Source: a virus
Direction: 5' to 3' (one strand)
IMG/VR virus record: IMGVR_UViG_3300037540_000302
Coordinates: 3,551-67,550 of that record
Length of the DNA stretch: 64,000 bases
This document shows, one piece after another, positions 1 to 64,000 of this stretch. A program made the translations under genes and the position numbers. The notes under the pieces were generated by a model. That model did no database searches. It worked only from the letters and a program-made list of their open reading frames with translations, and was not told the DNA's origin. The stretch's first letter is position 1, and every line of letters starts with the position of its first letter.

Positions 1-258
1 CAGCTTCTGCCTGGATTAATTCTCTTTTTTGATCTTCAATATAAGTTCCAAAATCGGTAAGACTTTTTGCTATTTTGTTTTTATATAACGTTTCATCTGG
101 TATAGAATTCCAAATAATTTTTAAATAACCTATATCATCTCGCCATTCATTAAGTTTTTCTTTTGTAATATCAGTCTGGCGCTTTAATCGGAGTAAGCGC
201 AAATATTTATCCCTATTTATTTTCCCAACTTCTGGCGATGGCGGTTGCCATTTTTCAT
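1..258 (-). CDS. Partial ORF running off the left edge (MKNGNRHRQKLGKINRDKYLRLLRL...); possibly the N-terminus of the gpF-like protein whose C-terminus is at the right edge
   Basis: Hand translation is open from ATG 258 to base 1; the link to gpF rests on gene order only. Confidence 0.45.
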
Positions 259-287
259 CTTTTTTTTCTTTTGTTGGGTTCATTTAT

Positions 288-479
288 TTACCTCCTTAAT
301 TTCTCAATCGGTATCCCGGTTTTCTCAGATATAATATTTTCAGTTTTAGTTTTCTTAATTTCACCGGTTATACGAATTTCCCGAAATGTAGAATATGATA
401 TGCGAAACATTCTACACATGGCTCCTATCTTTATATCTTTTTTATTCTCGTCTATCCAATTGTTTAGTAGTTTATTCAT
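288..479 (-). CDS. Small HTH (Cro/XRE-like) DNA-binding protein
   Basis: 63 aa; IGAMCRMFRISYSTFREI and ISEKTGIPIEKL fit an XRE-type HTH pattern. Confidence 0.5.
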   Translation of the reverse strand: MNKLLNNWIDENKKDIKIGAMCRMFRISYSTFREIRITGEIKKTKTENIISEKTGIPIEKLRR

Positions 480-1361
480 TTAATATACTCTCTATATTGA
501 TTTACAAAGATTTTAAATTCCGATTCATCCATAAAGTTTATCATATTATTTTTTACTAAATGATTTAATCTTATTTCACTATTTAAATGACAGCTCACAG
601 AGCCTATATATTTACTATCAAAATAAATCAATATGGATTGAAGATTATGCTTACAGTTTGCCTGGCAAAATCTACATTTAAAATCATTTAATCTAATCTC
701 TATTTCTTTAGAATGGGAGAATTCGCAATTTAAATGAACTATAGTAGGTCTTTGATATTTAGTTTCATCATTATAATAAATATATACTTTATCCATTATG
801 TTATACCTGAATTTTCTCTTAATTTACAAACACTACCAATAATTTCTGATATTGAATCATATAAATATGATTCGCTTTTGTTTTTAGGAAACCAATGTGA
901 ATATCGCCCTAAAAGTTTTATAATTTCACTTACCAAAGTACATCTGTCAAAATGATAACAATTTCGGCAGTCTTTTAATTCTTTTTGTTTATTCATTCAA
1001 TAACCCCTGTATTTTATCATCAAGTGCTTTTAGCATAAAATGAAAAGGATATATTACTACTAAATTCAAAAGCTTTTTTATTTCTTTCCAATCTTTTTCA
1101 TTACAATGGTGATAATCATAATCCCATTTATTATTTTCCATAAAACCTAATTTCATTATTGGAGTAGATTGCAAATTAATAAATCCGGTTTCTATAGTTG
1201 CTCCATAACCTTGATATGGCAATATCCCAAAATCATAATCTTTAGAATCAAAATTTACTTCTCGCCAACCCCATCCTATATAGGGAATTGATTTGCCTCC
1301 GAAAGATTCATATTCAGATGAATCATCGCAAATTATTTCTATTAGATTGTTAAGATTTTTG

Positions 1362-4911: not shown

Positions 4912-6447
4912 TCAAAAGCTCATCTTTTCATATAGTTCGCTTTTATATATTTCGGCTGGTTTAGATGATTTTTTTTGGATGGGATTGATGTAATGTAAAA
5001 CAAAATAACGCGTTTCATCCTGAGTGTGATTATTTTTATCAATAGGTTTTCCCTTTTTATTTAACTTATAGCTAAAATATTCCCGTCGGCTTGCCTTGCA
5101 GTGTTTTGCTATATAAAACATTGGCCTGCCTATAACGGGCGATAATGCACCTTTTACTTTTTCGATGCCAACATCAATTGTATTATCGGCGGCAATCATG
5201 CGAATGCCTTCGGGCTTTGCCTCTTCCCATTCTTTCCGCAAATCAGAGCGTGATGGATCATAAACGCATTCTTTAATATAATTCCACCATGCACGCTTTT
5301 TACATATTTCTATAACTTTTGGATTTGATGTATTTTCTTCAAATATTTCATCAACTCTTGCCCATGCGTTAAGAGCAGTATTTCTGAAATCTTGCCATAC
5401 TCCTATAGAAAATGCATCAGTACCGCCCCAATCTATAGAAAGATAAACCATTCTGTCGGGGCTAAAATGTACATCAATGAAATGATGCTCTTGAATTTCA
5501 TGACCATATACTAAATCGGGATGGCCGATTTTATTACAAAACCATTCCGTTTCTATACTAAAAAGTGATAGAGTTTGTAGCTTTGTCAAGAAATCTTTTA
5601 TTGTATAATATCCTGTGGCTTCTTTCATTTGCTTACCGGGGCAATATGGAGATAGTGGACAGGTGCTGCAAGAGTAATCTGTGCAGGCTTCGAGGCATTC
5701 CCAAATACACCAACGATATATCCGGGCATCTGGATTTTTTGAAGCACGCTCAAGCTGTTCATCCATATTTCCACCCATAACATGGTTAGTAGATGAAATT
5801 TGGAGGCAAGCTGGTATCCCATTTTTTGACATTGGTTGCGATAAAGCAATTTGCAATATATTGTCATCCATTACGTCAACTTCATCAAGTGCTGTAGTGT
5901 TGGGATGTGGACCTCTGGTTGACTTTTCAGATGCAGTCAAAATGCCTATTTTGGCTCCATTTTTAAGCCTCACCTTTTCAATTAATCTTTGTCCCTTTAC
6001 ATATCTTTCTTCTAAATAACATCTTCCATTATTTGCTCCTATACTCCAATAATCAGCCATTGCTTCATAAGCCCTAGAGGATTGTTCTCCACTTCCACCC
6101 AGGATAACAATATCCATAAGCTTATTCCAGAGAGATTTTAACCAATTTATCAAAGCCAAAAAATATGTTTTACTACCGCTCCTATTAGCCCATACTATTA
6201 CAACAGAATAGAAGTTCAAAAGCATATCTGATATATAATCGAATTGAGAGCAATGATCTTCATTTTCACACATGCGCTTAGTAGATACCTTTATGGGTAA
6301 TATGCTGTGCTTATACCTATTGTCTGCGTTCGTAAGTCTTATTATGGATTCCCTGTCCTTTACTCCATGTTTAATATACCACATTATTGAGACAAGTCTA
6401 TTTGCTTCTATTTTGGCTCTTTTGATTTCATCCTGGGTATAATCCAT
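4912..6447 (-). CDS. terL: Terminase large subunit
   Basis: Walker A ANRSGSKT, STRGPH, Walker B LDEVD, RNase H-like IDWG and terminal DKNNHTQDETRY. Confidence 0.93.
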   Translation of the reverse strand: MDYTQDEIKRAKIEANRLVSIMWYIKHGVKDRESIIRLTNADNRYKHSILPIKVSTKRMCENEDHCSQFDYISDMLLNFYSVVIVWANRSGSKTYFLALINWLKSLWNKLMDIVILGGSGEQSSRAYEAMADYWSIGANNGRCYLEERYVKGQRLIEKVRLKNGAKIGILTASEKSTRGPHPNTTALDEVDVMDDNILQIALSQPMSKNGIPACLQISSTNHVMGGNMDEQLERASKNPDARIYRWCIWECLEACTDYSCSTCPLSPYCPGKQMKEATGYYTIKDFLTKLQTLSLFSIETEWFCNKIGHPDLVYGHEIQEHHFIDVHFSPDRMVYLSIDWGGTDAFSIGVWQDFRNTALNAWARVDEIFEENTSNPKVIEICKKRAWWNYIKECVYDPSRSDLRKEWEEAKPEGIRMIAADNTIDVGIEKVKGALSPVIGRPMFYIAKHCKASRREYFSYKLNKKGKPIDKNNHTQDETRYFVLHYINPIQKKSSKPAEIYKSELYEKMSF

Positions 6448-6452
6448 ACAAT

Positions 6453-6481
6453 ATGATAGTATGGGTTTGGGATTTTGTCAA
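6453..6481 (-). promoter_or_regulatory. sigma70-type leaderless promoter of terL
   Basis: TTGACA-N17-TATCAT-N5-ATG, no SD. Confidence 0.75.
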
Positions 6482-6620
6482 TTATGGTTATTTTGTTGAA
6501 TGTTAGATTATCTTTATTTAATGACAAATAATTTAGGGTAATGACCCATCTATAGGTAGTGAAAAAAATAAAAAACATTTGATGCAGATTTTTATTTTTA
6601 ATAAATTTGTAAAAAAAAAG

Positions 6621-6649
6621 TTGACAAATAAAAAAAATCATGCTATTTA
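6621..6649 (+). promoter_or_regulatory. Putative promoter firing antisense into the tRNA-like element
   Basis: TTGACA-N17-TATTTA with TG extension; the same -10 variant occurs at 62196-62224. Confidence 0.45.
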
Positions 6650-6662
6650 TTAAAAATTGAAG

Positions 6663-6731
6663 TGGAGCGGCCGGGAGTCGAACCCGGATTGTTGGATGCG
6701 AAGCCCAAATTGTTAACCGTAACACCGCCCC
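6663..6731 (-). ncRNA. Atypical tRNA-like RNA (Ala-type acceptor; anticodon UCG or CGC depending on register)
   Basis: GGGGCGG/CCGCTCC-A acceptor with G3.U70, T-arm CCGGG-TTCGACT-CCCGG, anticodon arm TTGGG-CTTCGCA-TCCAA, minimal D-arm GTTA-CGGT-TAAC, no CCA; stem extended by about 10 bp of flanking inverted repeat. Confidence 0.75.
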
Positions 6732-6756
6732 ACTTCAATTTATTTTAATTTCATAA

Positions 6757-7381
6757 TCAACATATTTTCTTTTTCGGTAAAGGTCTATATTGGATATTTA
6801 GTAAATTAAATAATGCAATATAATATTCATCAGGGAATCGTTTTTGCCATTTCATCAATTCCTTAGAAATATATTTTGATAATATTTCTTGTAAAGCAAT
6901 TCTATCTCTTACTTCTTGATACCCAGTAGCCTCATCTACAAGTGCAATTATTCCAATTGTTGCTAATCCTCTCATTAAAATTTCGGCTTTTTTAGCGGTT
7001 TCCATTTGCTTATGAGCAAGAGCGCCGTTTTCTCTTGCTTTTAGCCAAATATTACATATTTCTGGTAATAATTCTGCATTAATCCCTTGGGCTTCTGTCC
7101 CCTTAATTGTTTTGTAAACTATCGGTATCAAAAGCTTTTGGCGAATATCACTATCAATAAATTGCTCTAATCTTTTTGCCGAAACATATTCCGGTAGAAC
7201 AGCGCCGTTTTTGACTTTTTTTCTTTGCCAATGAGCGCCGCCACCCCTTTTCCCAAGCGCCCTTGCTACGCTTCTTTCCCTCAATATCCTCGTGCCATCT
7301 TCTAATACTGCACAGGGTATTGAGCTTTCCCCTAATTTAATATCCCACTTGACGGGTTGCCATGGGACGCTGGTTATTCAT
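6757..7381 (-). pseudogene. P63C-domain (antirepressor-like) protein, frameshifted and C-terminally truncated
   Basis: GIIALVDEATGYQ..R...ALQ.IL..YI..EL..W.K.FPD.YY; IPCAVLEDGTR lies upstream in frame, but the ATG at 7381 is out of frame by one base. Confidence 0.75.
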
Positions 7382-7656
7382 TTTAATTTTCTAATTTATA
7401 TTATTAACTTTCACTAATTTACCATCAACCATTGTTAATTCCGTAGGATATTTTTCTTGCATTTCATTAAATGGATTTACTATTGGATTTTTAATAGCTC
7501 CATTATTCTGAATATCGGCCCATGACCAGGATTCAGCGCCAGAAACATGCAGCTTGAATTGGATTTCACCTTCTGGCAATTCGGGATGATTTGTTTCTCT
7601 TAAAATTTCTTGCACCTTATCGGCAATTTGCCTTTTTTGATTAATTGAAAACATAT

Positions 7657-7878
7657 TTATCTCCTTATTTTAATTTTAATTTCATCCGGGCTTATATCAC
7701 GCCCTAATTTTTCAGATAAGACAAGAGCTACCATAAGCCGCTTCCCCTTGCTTACCAATCCCGTCTTATTCCATTTCGAGAGGGTTTGTCTTGTTATATC
7801 GAAGTCCTTTGCAATTACTTCAAGCTTCCTGCCTATCTCGACGTTTTGTTGATCAATATATTGCTGAATTAAGGTCAT
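7657..7878 (-). CDS. HTH DNA-binding protein
   Basis: LEVIAKDFDITRQTLSKW HTH motif. Confidence 0.6.
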   Translation of the reverse strand: MTLIQQYIDQQNVEIGRKLEVIAKDFDITRQTLSKWNKTGLVSKGKRLMVALVLSEKLGRDISPDEIKIKIRR

Positions 7879-8167
7879 TTTATATCCTATTTATTTTCTT
7901 CATACCAATTAACCATTGATTTCCATTCTTGGATTTTTGCCCAAAGATATCTTTTGTTTATTCTATCAAATTTGATATTATTAGGGCAGGAGACACACAT
8001 ATTGGAAGGTGCTTTATTTTCATCTCCAACAAATATATGTATACTTTTCGGCCATATACCGCCCTTTAATCTCAAATACTGAGAGCGATCTATCATCCAG
8101 TTGTTAGGATTGGATAGTAACTCTTTTGCAATATCTTGTGTTATATTCCATATTTTATCCATATACT

Positions 8168-8196
8168 ATTATACACCAATTCCCTTTTTTTGTCTA
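8168..8196 (-). promoter_or_regulatory. sigma70-type leaderless promoter for the ORF starting at 8162
   Basis: TAGACA-N17-TATAAT-N5-ATG with TG extension. Confidence 0.7.
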
Positions 8197-9485
8197 CTTT
8201 ATTCTCAATTTTGTTGATTTAGGTTACAATTGCTTTTTAGCTATTTTCCGTAATGCAAGCAGTTCGCGCCAAATACCATCTCTAAGGTAATCAGTTCCGT
8301 GTATATTATATTCGTACTCTAATCGGTCAATATCATCCCCGCTTAACCAGTGATAATATAATTTATAAGCCACATCTAAGGCATCCCAATTTAATAACTC
8401 CACTGCAATCATCTTGATATTTTTACTATGGTTGATCTTATCGGGCCATATAATCTTACATTCCTGCACCATTTTTTCATGTTGTTGGGATTGATAAACA
8501 ATCTTATACATAGATTTTGGAATCATTGAAGCAGCAATCATTAATTTTTTAAATTTAGTAAACATAATGTGGCTTATTTGATATAGATTTAATCAATATC
8601 AAAATCCCTTTTCCCGCAGCATGGGCAATAAGCGATATCTTTATCTTTTAGCCAACTTTTATAAGTCCACCATCTTTGCGTAAACAATCGCTTAATATGT
8701 CTTTTTAAATTCCATAATAACATTTTCCATGAATGCACAGGAGTTGATTTAATTCCCGTTTCTTTTAGGAACCAGGGATCAACATTAATATAATAAGGTT
8801 TTATATTTCTTTTGAAATCTTCTATTATAAGTGATAAAGGATTGTATCCAAATGGCCTTGATTCCCAAAATTTTAAAGTCCATTTCCAATTCCAAAAGTC
8901 ATCTTGACTCCAATCGCATGAATGACAATGTAAATAAGCCATATATTATCTCCTACCCATAATAACCAATATTATTTAATATTTCTTTCTGCTTATTCCA
9001 TGTATTAATATGTATATTTATCGTTCTTTTTAGATCAAGTGAGAGCAACGTAAATGTCGTATCGCAAATCTTGTCTATTTCATAGGGTATTAATCTCCCA
9101 TCTTTTGATGAAAAAACTATAGTATCGCCTACTTTTGGATCATTTATTTCTTTCATAATTCACTTATCCCAATTATATAATTCTTTTGCTATCCCAAAAA
9201 GACCTACAGGTGCCATAATTATTGCAAATAAGCTAGCCCATCCTAAAATTTTTTTTGCTAAATTTTCATTAAATACTGAGATTGTTATTCCAAATATCAA
9301 TAATATAAAAGCAATCGTTCCTAAAATATGTAGAATAAAGCCAATTATATCTTTGTCTTTAAAATAATACATTAAGTCTCCTTTAAATCCCTCACCAGAG
9401 CTTACAGGGGCGCCGAGGGCAAGTTTTTATTGAAATCACGTAGGGTAAACCACTAATTAGAAAAGATAGAAGGATGTAGTCGATT

Positions 9486-9725
9486 TTACGCTGGGCATAT
9501 AACGCAACTCGTGTCCCATGGCCATGTATCACACATGGCGCCGCATGTCTCGGTATCGGGAGGACATCCATATGTAGGGCAATGTGGGTTACATGTAATT
9601 GTGCACCCAGCTGGATCGCAACTAAGCCACGGATCTGTACCTCCTTTAATTTTGCCCATTATATTACCATTCAAATTAGTAACCGTAATTTTGTTTAACT
9701 TTAATCTCTTAAATTTTGATTTCAT
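9486..9725 (-). CDS. RiPP (class I lanthipeptide-type) precursor peptide with double-glycine leader
   Basis: Leader LKLNKITVTNL (LxLxKx5L) ending MGKIKGG; 50-aa core with 9 Cys and 10 Ser/Thr; SD AAAGGAG upstream. Confidence 0.8.
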   Translation of the reverse strand: MKSKFKRLKLNKITVTNLNGNIMGKIKGGTDPWLSCDPAGCTITCNPHCPTYGCPPDTETCGAMCDTWPWDTSCVICPA

Positions 9726-9815
9726 TTATTTTACTCCTTTAAAAATGTTTTTTTTCTTTCCCACCATAACCCCGCATCCCCCTACACATCCAGGAGATTC
9801 CCCTTAAAAATAAAT

Positions 9816-10292
9816 TTATTCATCTTCATCTTTCATCATGCCATCAATAGATTTTTCTTCATCTCCCATCTTATCCAGGATTTTATCAAATGGAGTTTCT
9901 CTAAGTTCCACTTGCGATCTATCTGTAAATTTATGATGGTGCTTCAGCAAAAATATTGCCATTGTAGTATCTATATTTTTGTGTATCGCAAATTCCTGTA
10001 ATTTCATTTCCTGTAATTTCTTTGCTTTTTTTAGATACTGTAAAAACGACTTGAAATTATCTTTCAAATATGTTATGGCATGTGGGTATAGGTCCTTTTC
10101 AACTACAAGGAATTTCTCAAAAAATATATTGCCAGCATGATCGTCTGTCAATTCATTTTTATTTTTAGGGTCTTGAATATATTTAGGCATTAGCCATTCT
10201 ATTAAATCTTTCCCTAATTCAATAACTATTTCTTCCGTCCACTTCACGGCATTATTATTTCCAGGCTGGCCACCTTCTTTTTTTTTATCCAT
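9816..10292 (-). CDS. terS: Terminase small subunit / DNA-packaging protein
   Basis: GGQPGNNNA N-terminal motif, MAIFLLK..H...D C-terminal motif, acidic tail. Confidence 0.75.
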   Translation of the reverse strand: MDKKKEGGQPGNNNAVKWTEEIVIELGKDLIEWLMPKYIQDPKNKNELTDDHAGNIFFEKFLVVEKDLYPHAITYLKDNFKSFLQYLKKAKKLQEMKLQEFAIHKNIDTTMAIFLLKHHHKFTDRSQVELRETPFDKILDKMGDEEKSIDGMMKDEDE

Positions 10293-10293
10293 C

Positions 10294-10815
10294 TTAAAAT
10301 TCACACCCACATTTTGGACACTTATGTTTTTTGAACAGCTTTGTATTTACATCCTTATCTTTGAATTTCACATCCTCAAAATAGTTCTCCCTTATAGACT
10401 TCATGCCCTTATGTTTCTTTGTAAGGCTGTCAAGATTCAAATTGTGCACTGTTATTTCTTTATAGGCACCATCTTCCGTAATTTTTGTATATTTTTCTGC
10501 ATATAAAAATATCAATTCCACGGCTTCTGTCATATCCTTACAACCAATCCATTCGCCCGATAATAAATCAGGTACATCCTCCCCCAATCCTATCTGCTCA
10601 TTTAAAACAGCTTGCAAGTGGCAACCATCTAAAATCCATAATGCATCAGTGCTTTTTTGCCACAATCTATATGATCGTATAACCCCATGCTGTTTCAAAG
10701 ACTGTACCAATCGCTCCTTATCCTCTTTATAAAAATCTTTTAAATCATCTACTTGTAACCACTTTGCTTTTCTCCAATCGAATAGCCCTTGCTTAATTAT
10801 TCTATTTTCTATCAT
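10294..10815 (-). CDS. ParB-like N-terminal domain protein with C-terminal CPKCG zinc ribbon
   Basis: L..SL..HG....WILDGCH; HKCPKCGCEF; usual position upstream of terS. Confidence 0.7.
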   Translation of the reverse strand: MIENRIIKQGLFDWRKAKWLQVDDLKDFYKEDKERLVQSLKQHGVIRSYRLWQKSTDALWILDGCHLQAVLNEQIGLGEDVPDLLSGEWIGCKDMTEAVELIFLYAEKYTKITEDGAYKEITVHNLNLDSLTKKHKGMKSIRENYFEDVKFKDKDVNTKLFKKHKCPKCGCEF

Positions 10816-10821
10816 GCCCCT

Positions 10822-10850
10822 ATAATAATATCAATCTCCTATTTTGTCAA
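10822..10850 (-). promoter_or_regulatory. sigma70-type leaderless promoter of the parB-like/terS operon
   Basis: TTGACA-N17-TATTAT-N6-ATG. Confidence 0.75.
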
Positions 10851-12361
10851 CTTTCTTATCTTTTGATATTCGCTTATTAAGTATAGCTTCCATTTTAATA
10901 AATTCATCTCTTGTTGATAACTGGCTTATATCAAAATCAACATTTAATTCATCCTCTGCATGATATTCAGCGGTATCTTGCATTTGAATATCAGGCATTT
11001 TAACTATATGCCTAAATCCATCCGTAGCCTCAATAAAATGATCAACTCCATCACAACGCCAACAGAATCCCTCTTGCCATTTCGCCGTTTCCCTTTTCTT
11101 AGCTTCTAAAAGACAGGCCTTTTCACTACCTAATTTAGCAAAATTTTCATAAACTATAAGCCTAAACTTACACTTTCTTGCTTTTTTAAATTCCATAATT
11201 TACTCCTTTAATTTTTATACAAATGATATGGTTTATAATATAACATTATTCCCCATCTTTTCAGAAATTTTAATAACCACACAAAACTATCTCTTTGTAC
11301 TGCGTATTCATAAGCGGTATTCATTTCACGATCAAAATATTCAGAAGTATTGCTATTGCTATGATCTACTAATATTATGCTATCGCAGCTATTGCAAATC
11401 ACAATATCTTTTTTTATTCCAGATTTCCAATTTGTCCATTTATATTGACATATAGGACAAATCAATCTAAGCTTGTCTTTATTGAATCTTCCGATTTTAA
11501 TTTTATTCATTTTATACTCCTTTAATTTATTAATTTAATAACTTCGCCATCCTTTTGGCTGCCCTTGAAATTCTTTTCATTTTAATAAACATTAAGAGAT
11601 TTTTTAACCATAGTCTTTTTTGTGATTTCCCTATTTTATCCTTCAATAGTTTGAAATTTTCCTTTACTTTGGTATCATCTCCACCGATTATAGAAATCTT
11701 AAATCTAATCTCTTCTAATTTCATTTTAAAACAATCCCGTCAATTTTAGAAAAAGATATGCAAGGTGAACACCAATAATAACCATAAGCTTTGGATAAGC
11801 ATAATCTCTGATAATAAAATAGGATTTCCAAAATATTGATTTTATATCAGTACCTTTAACTTTTGTTAAATTGCCTATTAAAAATACTGAAAATGAAATC
11901 CCATAAACTATCCACAACAAAATTTTAAGTACTATCATTTTGACCTCCTTTAAAATATTCAATGAGCTTATGGCCTTTAGTTTTTGTAACAATTGGCTTT
12001 GTAATTTTTATTTCCTTCGCCATAATGGCTCCCTTATCCCAGGAAGGATCAATTGAAATTCTAAATTCCTCTGGTGTTAAATGATAAAGGGCTGCTGCGC
12101 GGGGCAAAGGAGTTTCCCCCTTTATTTCACATTCAAAAGCAAAAACATAATCCCCAATTTCCTTTGGCATAGCATTAATTAAATTGCCTAATGTATTAAA
12201 GCATAAAGGATGATAGCCCTTTTCAGCAAGCCATTTATGAGCTTTGCAAAATACTCCAATCTTATATTCAATACATGCTTCTTTATTGTCTGTTGGCACT
12301 CCGATTGATACATATTTGCCATCATGAGACCGACATACAGCTTTATAATATTTTCTTCTTT

Positions 12362-18873: not shown

Positions 18874-19176
18874 TCATCCCGTCACCTCCAATAAAAAATC
18901 CTTTATTTCATTTTTTGTCAATAAGCCCGTTTTAATACCTAACGTTTTGCCATTCTTAAATATGGCTAATTTAGGAAATTTTACAATCCTGAATCGTTTC
19001 TCCATTTCGGTCTCTTTTTCAAGATCGCATTCATACATTTTGATACTCGCGAGATTGCAAGACTTAAGGTTTTCAATAAGATTCCTACCGATTTGATCAT
19101 TCTTTCTAAACACAACCATAATTATGAATGGCTGTAGCAATACTTTTTTATAGTTTTGATCTGTTAGTTTATTCAT
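18874..19176 (-). CDS. Thioredoxin-fold protein lacking CxxC
   Basis: LTDQNY...VVF, D.E.E.EM..RFRI..FP.LAIFKNGK....TG...K.EI..FL matches the thioredoxin scaffold; WCGPC absent. Confidence 0.7.
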   Translation of the reverse strand: MNKLTDQNYKKVLLQPFIIMVVFRKNDQIGRNLIENLKSCNLASIKMYECDLEKETEMEKRFRIVKFPKLAIFKNGKTLGIKTGLLTKNEIKDFLLEVTG

Positions 19177-36597: not shown

Positions 36598-38750
36598 ATG
36601 ATATAATAAAATCATTGAGCGGAATAAGTGGAATTTGCGGATTAAATTGTCGTATATTCTTGCGAGGTAGATGTAAAGCGTATACCTCGGAAGAAATAGT
36701 ACAGGAAATTAATACAATGACTCCTGAAAATAGAAATAAATATATTAAAGAGACTGAGATTTTAGAATTATATCCTGGAATAAAAGAGGCAATTGATAAT
36801 GTATAAGAAAATATTGATAGGAGTCCCGATTTATGTTGATAAAAATAATCCTAAATGTTGCAATTTTAGATGTAATAATATTTGCTATGGTGAAAACTTT
36901 GCAGAATGTGGAGAATTTAAGGATAAAGAAGATAGGAGAAAAAGATTAGAATTATCTAAAAATAATAAATGGCGCCGATGCGCAGCTTGCAAGAAAGCAG
37001 AGATAAAAAAGGAGAAAGCATGAGTAATGACCGTTGTATAGTAGTTCAAGAGAGTGAGAAGCACCCGGATGGATTGATAAGGGTTCCAAAATGCGATAAA
37101 TGTATTACTATGGACGAGTGTCACGATTGGTGTATTTTGGTAGATGCATATATTGAAGATTATGAAATAATCCATAAAGACTGCCCCCTCCCTCTCTATG
37201 ATAGGATGCGATGGCATATGCCGGATGAAGTGCCACCCGATGGGAAAATTGTTAGATTAAAATTAAAAATCAAGTATATAATAAGCGATAAATATATAGG
37301 ATTTTATCAAAGCTTGCCGGATGAATGGAGAGGTTGTGGATATAGGAGTGCTGATAAGATCATAGAAAAATCTCAAATTGTCTCATGGAGGCATTTATGA
37401 CATTAAAAGAATTTAGAGAATGGCTTGAAAATAAATTAAAATCTGTATACAATTATAATGATATTCCCCAAAGAGAAGCAGCAATACATGAACTTAAATT
37501 AGTTAAACAAAAATTCGATACTATCAAATTTCCTGAGTGGGCAAACCCGGATAAGCCACCGAAGCATAGCAATGAAATTTTATTAAAATTGAAATCTCAC
37601 CCATCCCTTCCTGAAAGATACCAAAATCACATATGGTATAAAATAGGATGGTATGATTTAAAAGAAAAAAAATATACAAAACATTATGGGCTTAATGGTA
37701 ATAGTGTAATTGTTTTAGGCTATATGGAGATTCCAGAATGAAAACAATAACAATCGAACTGACAAATAAAAATGCCAAAGAAATAGAAAAACTTCTGAAG
37801 GATCGCTATAACCCTAATTATATAATAGGCTTAAGCTCGCTTGCCCATATGGCAATATTGGAAATAATAGAAGACCAAAGGGTTAAAAATCTTTTTAAAG
37901 AAACACGAGGTAATAGAAAATGTATAAAAAACAAATAACAATAAAGCAATATCAGGAAGCTAAGCAGATTATGAAAAAATATCATGAACAGGATCAAGAA
38001 AAACTTGAAGAATTAGAAAATATTATTTTGCCCTTACTGATAGATTATGGAAAAAAGGGTTATAATTATGAAAATGCTGAATTTGTATTTAATAGTATTT
38101 TGAAGATTATATTTGAGCTTTTCAATTCAAAAGGAGTTTAAATTAGATGAGTGAAATGTTAAATGAATTAAAGAAAACCACAAAATACATATGGCTTTAT
38201 TTTCTTTTGGGGATTATATTGACAATATCAACCTATATATCAAATAAATTATTTTGGAAAATCATTCTTGACCTAATGAGCATAATCTCATTTATTCTTT
38301 TTGCAATTGGCATATTGGGAATTTGGATTTTAAAGAAATTAAGAATTATTCCAGAAGACATTATAGAAGATGACTAAATTTACAATAAAATGTGATAGTT
38401 GCGGAAAAGAAATAATAGTAAAATATTATTATAAAGATTATGAAAGGGATAAGTTGATTAGGTGCGGACATTGTAACGATACAGAAATATTAAACTATTG
38501 GGATTTAATGGATCGGGAAAAAGAGAAATGAAACAAGAAAAAGATAAAATTAAAAAATACCAGGTTGTTTATGAAGAAAATAATTATTTCGATGAAAATT
38601 ATGGCCCTTATGGCTACAGGAAAGTCGGGATTAAAATTGATAATAGAATTATTTGGCTATATACTCAAAGTTGCGGAGGTACTGATAAATTTCTAAAATG
38701 GGAAAAGGAAGCTTCCTTTATAGTTGATGCGTGTAATGACAAAAATGAAA

Positions 38751-39770
38751 ATGAATAAAGAAATAACTGATAAAAAATTAAAATGGTGGCAGTCCTCCTG
38801 GCTTACAATGTTTGGCTTGCTTTGTATCTCCTTTACTCTTGTTTCTCTATGGAATCAAGGGGTATTTTATTATGAGTCTTTAGGATTTGCATTGGCTGTG
38901 CTAATTAGCCTATCCCTTGAAGCCTCACGATTGACCTGTCTGCACTCAATGTTTGTTGACAGTTCGCCAATTGCTATTTTGATTTATATTCTAATAGCTT
39001 CATGGTGCCTGTCAGCAAACGTAATTGCATTTAGTGTCAAATTTGAGTCAAAGCGCCTGTCAAATTTGACAGAATTTGACAAACTATTTAACCAGGTTGT
39101 CAATAAAAAAAAGTTGAAAATTGATTTTGACATACTAAATGCGAAAAATGAAATCCACCAAAATGAAGGATTATCTAAAAAGTATCCTCAAAATAAAGAA
39201 TATAATGGCTACACAGAGGATTGGAAATCACGAATTAGGGAACACATTAAGGAGAAAATTAAAATAACCAGTTTTCGCCCCTTAAATAAGGCTCAATTTA
39301 CCCGGTCAATCTTACTACATGGCGATCCGGAGGACATTAAGACCTTAAATGACATAAGATACCGTGCAAAAGAAAATAATGCGCTCACGGGCTTCCTACG
39401 CATTCCGGCAGAATTGATGGAATTTATAATTCAAATATGCCTTGCTATTCTTATTGAGATAATGATTCTCAGATTCGGCTATTTAGCAAAATTTCCTTTG
39501 TCAAAAAGTTGTCAAAAAAAGTCAAAAAAGAAAACTAAAAGTCAAGATTTGTCAAAAATAGAATTAAGTGATAATCAAAAATTATGGACACGTCAATTTT
39601 TTGATAAGTCTATCCAAATTGACAGGGATAAATCCGGGTGGCTAAATAGTGGGGCATTAAGACCGAGTCCCGAGAGGGATGAATTGGTAAAGCTTAAAAA
39701 AGCTTGCAAAAATAAAAAATATTTGGCTGCATGTTTGGCCGCAGCCGGGATTAATCAGGAGGTAAAATGA
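38751..39770 (+). CDS. Multi-pass membrane protein with coiled coil and basic C-terminal cytoplasmic domain
   Basis: Three N-terminal hydrophobic segments, a coiled region, a fourth TM, then a Lys-rich tail. Confidence 0.7.
   Translation: MNKEITDKKLKWWQSSWLTMFGLLCISFTLVSLWNQGVFYYESLGFALAVLISLSLEASRLTCLHSMFVDSSPIAILIYILIASWCLSANVIAFSVKFESKRLSNLTEFDKLFNQVVNKKKLKIDFDILNAKNEIHQNEGLSKKYPQNKEYNGYTEDWKSRIREHIKEKIKITSFRPLNKAQFTRSILLHGDPEDIKTLNDIRYRAKENNALTGFLRIPAELMEFIIQICLAILIEIMILRFGYLAKFPLSKSCQKKSKKKTKSQDLSKIELSDNQKLWTRQFFDKSIQIDRDKSGWLNSGALRPSPERDELVKLKKACKNKKYLAACLAAAGINQEVK
38956..39624. repeat. Array of TTGACA/TGTCAA hexamers including the perfect palindrome CTGTCAAATTTGACAG (39057-39072)
   Basis: 11 exact copies counted by eye, plus several one-mismatch copies. 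Confidence 0.8.
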
Positions 39771-63644: not shown

Positions 63645-64000
63645 TTATATGTTTATTTCAGCCGTTTTTTTAACAGCTTCTTTTTGTAATCTCTTATTTA
63701 AATTAAATAATGTATTTTTGCCTTGAAATTCTTCTGGTAAATCTCCTAATGCCTTTCTAAGCTTATCATTCATTTTTGTAGGCTGCAGCCCTCTTTTCTT
63801 AGCTCTAAAAATTGTTATAGGTACAGTGTAACATCTACAATTATAATCTAATGGTGGTGTAATGCCTGCCCATACGGAATCATTTTTCTTTGCCCTAAAT
63901 TCATCTAATGCAGAATGAGAATCTCTTGTTCTATCATCTATTATTGCTCGGAATTCAATCATTTCGATATTTCGATCTCTTCTAAAATTATCGAAACGTG
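63645..64000 (-). CDS. Head morphogenesis protein (Mu gpF / SPP1 gp7-like), C-terminal part
   Basis: FRAIIDDRTRDSH..LD......D.VW....PPLDYNCRC; frame open to the window edge. Confidence 0.9.
   Translation of the reverse strand, partial: RFDNFRRDRNIEMIEFRAIIDDRTRDSHSALDEFRAKKNDSVWAGITPPLDYNCRCYTVPITIFRAKKRGLQPTKMNDKLRKALGDLPEEFQGKNTLFNLNKRLQKEAVKKTAEINI

Follow-up and report, generated by a model that had tools for sequence, protein, structure and literature searches.

A lone class I lanthipeptide-type precursor gene in the packaging region of a phage and its putative maturation by the host

The analysis of a stretch of 64,000 nucleotides (hereafter, the window), which covers bases 3551-67550 of the genome of an uncultivated virus of 67,550 bases, identified a real phage gene whose product has the make-up of a class I lanthipeptide precursor (Table 1). 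The explanation put first here, and held with about even confidence, is that this gene encodes a class I lanthipeptide-type precursor that was probably captured from a bacterium and is putatively matured in trans by enzymes of the host. Both the leader family and class I lanthipeptides were known already and, as far as the literature was searched, what is new is the presence of a lone precursor on a phage. No published naturally phage-borne lone lanthipeptide or RiPP precursor was found in these literature searches, nor any characterised product of the leader subgroup to which the phage peptide belongs. A study that connects RiPPs with phages (PMC11118758) does so, in its main text, through host-phage networks and not through phage-encoded precursors.

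The gene has the same orientation as all the neighbouring genes. An earlier note, based on the letters of the window, had described this open reading frame, and the translation obtained here was identical to it letter for letter, with the minus strand now added; the division into a GG-ending leader of 29 residues and a core of 50 residues with nine Cys and ten Ser/Thr was likewise reproduced when the residues were counted. The core also contains eight Pro and three Trp, has no Lys or Arg and carries a net charge of -6. Eight overlapping Ser/Thr-x(0-4)-Cys stretches recur along it, which, judged from the sequence, provide the capacity for (methyl)lanthionine rings only, the rings themselves being putative. 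The peptide bears the precomputed Pfam label PF28317. Shine-Dalgarno-like (SD) motifs precede 49 of the 87 ORF starts of the phage, compared with about 10% of random positions. That the frame is open merely by chance, or that the true gene is instead a 98-residue antisense ORF (9511..9807, plus strand), appears extremely improbable. The antisense ORF is the longer of the two and, since a simple picker of the longest ORF settled on it, the precursor gene could escape gene callers; however, it gave no Pfam match and runs against the local gene direction, whereas the precursor is matched by two independent leader models, has homologous peptides elsewhere and is preceded by an SD site. The codon composition gave a further indication of its history. 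The GC content at third codon positions is 0.42 in the core, 0.28 in the leader and 0.25 in the large genes of the phage, and the commonest codons of the core for Thr, Pro and Asp (ACA, CCA and GAT) are those preferred by the phage. These codon data suggest an old capture followed by partial adaptation to the codon usage of the phage. As to expression, no RNA run is listed with the stretch, and one DNA run, from a marine sediment metagenome, contains it.

Table 1. Features of the precursor gene and its surroundings (positions in the window)
Feature	Position	Strand	Details
Precursor peptide gene	9486..9725	-	ATG start, TAA stop, 79 codons + TAA; ORF list and translation
Leader codons of the precursor	9639..9725	-	29 aa, GG at end
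Core codons of the precursor	9489..9638	-	50 aa, 9 Cys, 10 Ser/Thr
Shine-Dalgarno AGGAG of the precursor gene	9734..9738	-	9-13 nt upstream of ATG
Spacer between upstream ORF and precursor gene	9726..9815	-	90 nt, GC 0.356
Upstream ORF, possible terminase small subunit	9816..10310	-	164 aa; phrog_309 E 2.4e-5
Next gene downstream	9160..9372	-	70 aa, two hydrophobic helices, own AGGAG; translation
P63C-domain protein	6757..7284		phrog_2384 E 2e-57
tRNA-Arg(TCG)	6662..6731		
Terminase large subunit (TerL)	4912..6447	-	phrog_10250 E 2.4e-12; Pfam TerL_ATPase below cut-off

The assignment of the peptide to a family relies on its leader. A search against lanthipeptide leader families, which had been proposed in the earlier note as a check, returned the NCBIfam model NF038153 (lant_leader_L1a, "class I lanthipeptide") over residues 1-29 at 22.2 bits (E 1.2e-4), a score that passes the curated cut-off of 22 by only 0.2 bits and stands well below the approximately 31-49 bits of the bacterial members among the matches listed. 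The motif LxLxKx5L is readable in the leader as L8-x-L10-x-K12-x5-L18, and G28-G29 is invariant in the alignment of the phage leader with six homologues. The leader type named earlier, LxLxKx5L with a terminal GG, is therefore borne out by the motif and by the model at its cut-off, and it concurs with the passages of Walker et al. (2020; bioRxiv 10.1101/2020.03.13.990614) that describe the LxLxKx5L motif, the GG end and a C39 protease in Bacteroidetes; pinensin is the sole isolated product named there for Bacteroidetes. The pinensin family itself (NF038180, leader_pinensin) was rejected, at 9.3 bits and E 1.1 against a cut-off of 24. An additional HMM, built from 39 bacterial leaders only and leaving out the phage peptide, was applied to 13,148 ORF segments from the window and 59 related phage loci; the precursor ORF scored 32.5 bits (E 3.4e-8) and the next best segment had an E value of 1.3. 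Further, a phmmer search of 1.84 billion representatives yielded 16 proteins at E<=0.001, the phage peptide itself among them. Nine of these, long Cys-rich proteins, were set aside, and the other six are metagenomic peptides of 65-81 residues that have the same leader and a Cys-rich core, one of which (P0004) also aligns over the core (W, GCT..C, MCD..W..C). The phage peptide shares with class I LanA precursors of the NF038153 type its leader motif, the terminal GG and the abundance of Cys and Ser/Thr in the core, and differs from the bacterial ones in being carried by a phage, in the absence of LanB, LanC and C39 genes from the same genome and in a leader score that lies at the cut-off.

A related K-rich leader ending in GG, together with a Cys-rich core, is also found in TIGR04149 (GG_sam_targ_CFB), the radical-SAM-modified GG-leader peptides of Bacteroidota. 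The phage peptide matches this model at 12.8 bits (E 0.081), far below the cut-off of 25, and membership was rejected; moreover, the phage has no canonical Radical_SAM/SPASM enzyme. It is very improbable that the precursor is the substrate of a radical-SAM/SPASM enzyme, whether this enzyme belongs to the host or is the DUF5131 protein of the phage (20137..20874). Besides the weak leader match, such a reading could draw on the similarity of the DUF5131 ORF to TIGR04471 (rSAM_mob_pairA, "radical SAM mobile pair protein A"), at 84 bits, and on weak Radical_SAM fragments near two bacterial loci of the leader family (L011 and L058). However, the cut-off of TIGR04471 is 355, the DUF5131 ORF is located at a distance of 10 kb, in a group of replication-type genes, the fragments at the two loci are below the Pfam cut-off, and the enzyme found next to the family, in 11 of 38 bacterial loci, is LanC.

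The search for maturation genes could be carried out over the whole phage genome. The ends of the record overlap by 127 bases and a Mu-F-like head gene runs across them in two parts (63645..63962, minus strand, plus genome bases 3..788), which means that the assembly is closed. Because the head gene is split in this manner, the 127-base "direct terminal repeat" is best seen as an overlap left by the assembly of a circular or permuted genome and not necessarily as a physical end. A contig of 67,235 bases produced by a second assembler from the probable source run, a marine sediment metagenome, is identical over 7000..12000. The genome encodes a Mu-type head module (portal, gpT-like capsid, gp36 and F), TerL, a tape-measure protein, a DNA methylase, an SNF2 helicase, RusA and a Cas4-like exonuclease. 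Six-frame searches of the whole 67,550-base record gave no match to LanB (PF04738) or LanC (PF05147), and the same searches, used as a positive control, gave matches in five out of five bacterial genomes. Pfam scans of 15+125 ORFs of the window and of 11 ORFs outside it found no LanB, LanC, LanM, Radical_SAM/SPASM, YcaO or C39. The earlier note had claimed that LanB, LanC, LanM, SPASM and C39 genes were missing from the window, which these scans bore out, and the same was true of the 3,550 bases outside it; modifying genes beyond the window, which the note had named as evidence to the contrary, were looked for in the closed genome and none was found. Its proposal that the phage supplies only a substrate agrees with a closed genome that has no maturation or export gene. 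Sublancin 168, encoded on the SPbeta prophage of Bacillus subtilis, is also a phage-borne, ribosomal, Cys-rich, leader-bearing and exported peptide. SPbeta carries the full sublancin operon, including the modifying enzyme, the exporter and thiol-disulfide oxidoreductases, whereas the phage described here carries the substrate only.

Regarding the lifestyle of the phage, no integrase was found by Pfam, PHROG, NCBIfam and PDB searches. A 348-residue ORF (38724..39770) considered as a candidate integrase was discarded, with no match in PDB, Pfam, PHROG or NCBIfam. Were the phage strictly lytic and the gene expressed late, a product that depends on an exporter would have little time to act. Two other minus-strand genes deserve mention. 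The DUF5131 (phage Gp37/Gp68) protein has an N-terminal Cys cluster, and a 100-residue protein with a thioredoxin fold (18874..19176) matches Pfam Thioredoxin at E 2.4e-7 and has no CxxC active-site motif.

The behaviour of the leader family in bacteria turned out to be central to the interpretation. The back-translated leader motif was scanned over 185,579 species genomes and gave 55 loci, 38 of which were accepted as containing a GG-leader, Cys-containing peptide of 40-120 residues. The accepted loci come from Aminicenantes/Acidobacteriota, Bacteroidota, Delongbacteria, Deferrimicrobium and some MAGs labelled "Clostridia", whereas Walker et al. (2020) described Bacteroidetes. MAGs of Aminicenantes or Acidobacteria/Acidobacteriota contributed 14 of the 38 accepted peptide loci and 16 of the 55 loci fetched. 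The link with Ca. Aminicenantes, which the earlier note had given as an unverified hint to the host, is thus true for the leader family; no report joining Aminicenantes and lanthipeptides was found in the literature. Within 2 kb of the 38 loci, a LanC-like ORF was present at 11, LanB also at two, C39 at one and HlyD at one; no other enzyme comes near LanC in frequency beside members of the family. Because the other 27 loci have no LanC-like ORF within 2 kb, the enzyme link of the leader family is statistical and not locus-specific.

Five genomes whose copies had no enzymes nearby (G001 to G005, reached through loci L017, L013, L030, L058 and L022) were then searched whole. They contain, respectively, 78 (G001, an Aminicenantes MAG), 50, 23, 41 and 32 leader matches, in comparison with 5, 3, 3, 6 and 4 matches to LanC, 4, 3, 3, 3 and 3 to LanB-N and 1, 1, 2, 2 and 1 to C39. 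The five are MAGs labelled Aminicenantes, Acidobacteria/Acidobacteriota and Deferrimicrobium, and their precursor genes are scattered over many contigs. Among the 150 leader matches listed, to which 74 more have to be added, four share a contig with LanB or LanC, in MAGs that are fragmented; on one contig (G005:C71) the C39, LanB and LanC genes are adjacent. An important conclusion of these searches is that lone precursors are the rule for the leader family in bacteria, with most genes located away from any LanB or LanC. The word "orphan", applied to the phage gene in the earlier note, holds in the sense that the phage has no enzymes; it does not set the gene apart, as most bacterial genes of the family are also distant from LanB and LanC. 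The precursor sets of the five genomes amount to a class I counterpart of the combinatorial library of prochlorosins. Prochlorosins (ProcA/ProcM, marine cyanobacteria) belong to class II and have a leader of the Nif11/NHLP type. The two systems have in common few enzymes and many scattered precursors (here, 23-78 leader matches per genome as against 3-6 for LanC); Walker et al. (2020; bioRxiv 10.1101/2020.03.13.990614) describe prochlorosin precursors as encoded distantly from their LanM. Contrary to the prochlorosins, the present system uses LanB and LanC in place of LanM, with a different leader and in different phyla. No phage-borne prochlorosin was found in the literature.

The 39 bacterial cores have a median of six Cys and eight Ser/Thr and a median net charge of -2 (range -8 to +2), and the phage core falls within this range; across the family, Ser/Thr counts track Cys counts. 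These figures bear on the possibility that the GG leader serves a C39 ABC exporter only and that the peptide is exported with no lanthionine, as an unmodified, disulfide-bonded or metal-binding Cys-rich peptide, in the manner of class II bacteriocins or signalling peptides. This is considered decidedly unlikely. The GG end and the Cys-rich core would fit such a peptide, as would the 27 of 38 bacterial loci that have no LanC within 2 kb and the presence of a C39 exporter in each family-bearing genome. However, nine Cys is an odd number for disulfide pairing, the Ser/Thr counts follow those of Cys in the family, the leader model is tied by NCBI to class I lanthipeptides, and LanC is the commonest adjoining enzyme. 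In addition, the marine-sediment source suggests an anoxic habitat, which would be poor for disulfides.

Maturation of the phage peptide in trans by host enzymes, although putative, is plausible. It is credible because, in bacteria that have the family, a single LanB-LanC-C39 set serves tens of scattered precursors and, because lone precursors are normal in the family, a foreign precursor with the right leader should be accepted. The precursor gene would be transcribed together with the genes of the packaging region and, in a host with a cognate system, its leader would be bound by the LanB dehydratase of that host. Ser/Thr residues of the core would be dehydrated and LanC would close thioether rings onto the nine Cys, after which a C39-peptidase ABC exporter would cut behind GG and release an acidic, polycyclic peptide of 50 residues. 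The benefit of this product to the phage may be that of a weapon in competition, a signal or an interference with the host's own peptides. Several observations weigh against this explanation: the NF038153 score at the cut-off, the near absence of the leader family from the Planctomycetota genomes searched, where nearly all genomic relatives of the terminase are found, its patchy occurrence even in the phylum of the Aminicenantes MAG, the 27 of 38 bacterial loci with no LanC close by, the lack of an integrase, the strongly acidic core and the absence of the precursor gene from phages related by TerL. Classical lantibiotics are cationic, unlike the phage core.

Among these roles, export of a modified peptide to the advantage of the phage or the infected cell is favoured over a pure decoy. 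A decoy would be an overproduced, leader-bearing substrate that saturates the LanB, LanC or exporter of the host and thereby blocks the host's lanthipeptides, some of which are perhaps antiviral. Lanthipeptides with anti-phage activity have been reported in Actinomycetota, according to a preprint (bioRxiv 10.1101/2024.06.26.600839) and a review (PMC12360287, section 2.1.8), and one enzyme set for many substrates could be open to competition. Nevertheless, such an anti-defence role is highly unlikely for the phage peptide: the leader alone would suffice for it, yet a long, family-typical core has been kept; a system that serves 23-78 substrates seems hard to jam by one more; and nothing marks the leader family as antiviral.

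If promiscuous host enzymes do finish the phage substrate and export it, 240 bases would be a very cheap means for a virus to give its host a new secreted molecule, and phage ecology would be linked to the large, unstudied precursor libraries of sediment bacteria (23-78 genes per genome). A broader proposal, which is put forward here as doubtful, is that phages of many-precursor lanthipeptide lineages repeatedly carry lone precursors and have the host make and export a modified peptide specified by the phage. If true, such peptides could act as phage-to-phage or phage-to-host signals, a modified-peptide analogue of arbitrium, as weapons on uninfected competitors or by interfering with host peptides. 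Their genes would make up a new kind of auxiliary gene of phages, one that encodes nothing but a substrate and thereby reprograms the natural-product machinery of the host. Because RiPP genome mining starts from enzymes, lone precursors, above all viral ones, go uncounted.

The search for solo precursors in viral databases that had been suggested earlier was undertaken in IMG/VR, by motif scans, and in INPHARED, and produced no further copy. A tblastn search of INPHARED with the peptide at E<=1 found no copy. A pattern derived from the alignment matched 130 stretches of IMG/VR, none of which was confirmed by tblastn, and three DNA motif scans of the same database gave 4, 33 and 30 loci (67 in total), all of them false by eye or HMM; the IMG/VR scans leave out the record of the window itself and miss leader variants outside LNKxT[IV]x[ND]LN. 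The 39-leader HMM detected no such precursor gene in 59 TerL-related phage loci (697 kb), and the peptide, when scanned against JGI metagenomes, had a single marginal match, of 20 residues (L192). The fact that the gene is a singleton across the related loci, the IMG/VR motif matches and INPHARED is what would be expected of a passenger, that is, a host precursor picked up in the variable region between the putative terS and terL that has no role in the phage and is perhaps left unprocessed. The gene sits among about ten small ORFs with no assigned function, and capture would be easy from bacterial genomes that hold tens of such genes. Despite this, a passenger is considered unlikely, as the gene has kept an intact frame, a strong SD site and a codon choice that is partly phage-like, and useless DNA is purged from phage genomes.

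The hints as to the host of the phage conflict with one another. Leader similarity singles out no lineage. TerL has 170 homologues at E<=1e-10, and of the 75 genome loci that contain a relative of it, 74 are in MAGs of Planctomycetota, at 24-34% identity. These MAGs belong to Pirellulales, Phycisphaerae and Sedimentisphaerales, the lone exception being a Ca. Aegiribacteria MAG, and the TerL loci of Planctomycetota are probably prophages, because some are on contigs of 0.6-6 Mb. The leader family, in turn, was present in 0 of 5 and 1 of 151 Planctomycetota genomes searched and in 6 of 151 genomes of the phylum of the Aminicenantes MAG, that MAG counted. Searches for TerL in 301 genomes of this phylum were negative, as were those in five genomes that bear the peptide family (Delongbacteria, "Clostridia" or unnamed MAGs). 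Against INPHARED, TerL gave one partial match of 26%; as single queries, TerS and TerL found nothing in IMG/VR, and TerL found nothing in bacterial genome contigs. An Atlas search with the portal returned viral clusters only. Bacteroidota make little use of SD sequences, and the SD usage of the phage (49 of 87 starts) therefore argues against a host from this phylum.

The position of the gene gives an indication of how it may be expressed. The earlier description of it as directly downstream of terS is accurate as to adjacency with the upstream ORF, the identity of which as terS is weak: its PHROG match is the one given in Table 1, and no Pfam or NCBIfam match was obtained. A scan of 8900..10400 returned 0 terminators, and no sigma-70-like promoter match lies inside the spacer, the nearest promoter-like site on the minus strand being at 10151..10123. 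Because the spacer has neither a terminator-like site nor such a promoter match, the precursor gene and the upstream gene probably share a transcript. Just upstream of the SD, the spacer contains a G-rich tract (G4, G5, G4 and GGTGGG within 45 nt) that contrasts with the otherwise AT-rich phage and, on its sequence, may form a G-quadruplex or serve in regulation. An Rfam search of 8800..10500 gave nothing credible. The 70-residue ORF next downstream had no Pfam, PHROG or NCBIfam match, none of the bacterial or phage loci fetched contained a homologue of it, and its Atlas matches were all <0.9; an immunity-like role for it is only a guess. The small ORFs neighbouring the precursor gene likewise lacked homologues in any fetched locus.

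The gap between the putative terS and terL spans 3.4 kb (6448..9815) and contains, besides about ten small ORFs, the P63C-domain protein and the tRNA-Arg; it represents a variable island of an unusual kind within the packaging module. The TerL of the window has no insert, whereas some of its homologues (P0021, P0060, P0076 and P0109) reach 625-891 residues, and their precomputed Pfam labels point to the insertion of mobile elements: PF14890, which we take to be the intein splicing domain, on P0060, P0076 and P0109, and PF14528, presumably the LAGLIDADG homing-endonuclease domain, on P0021.
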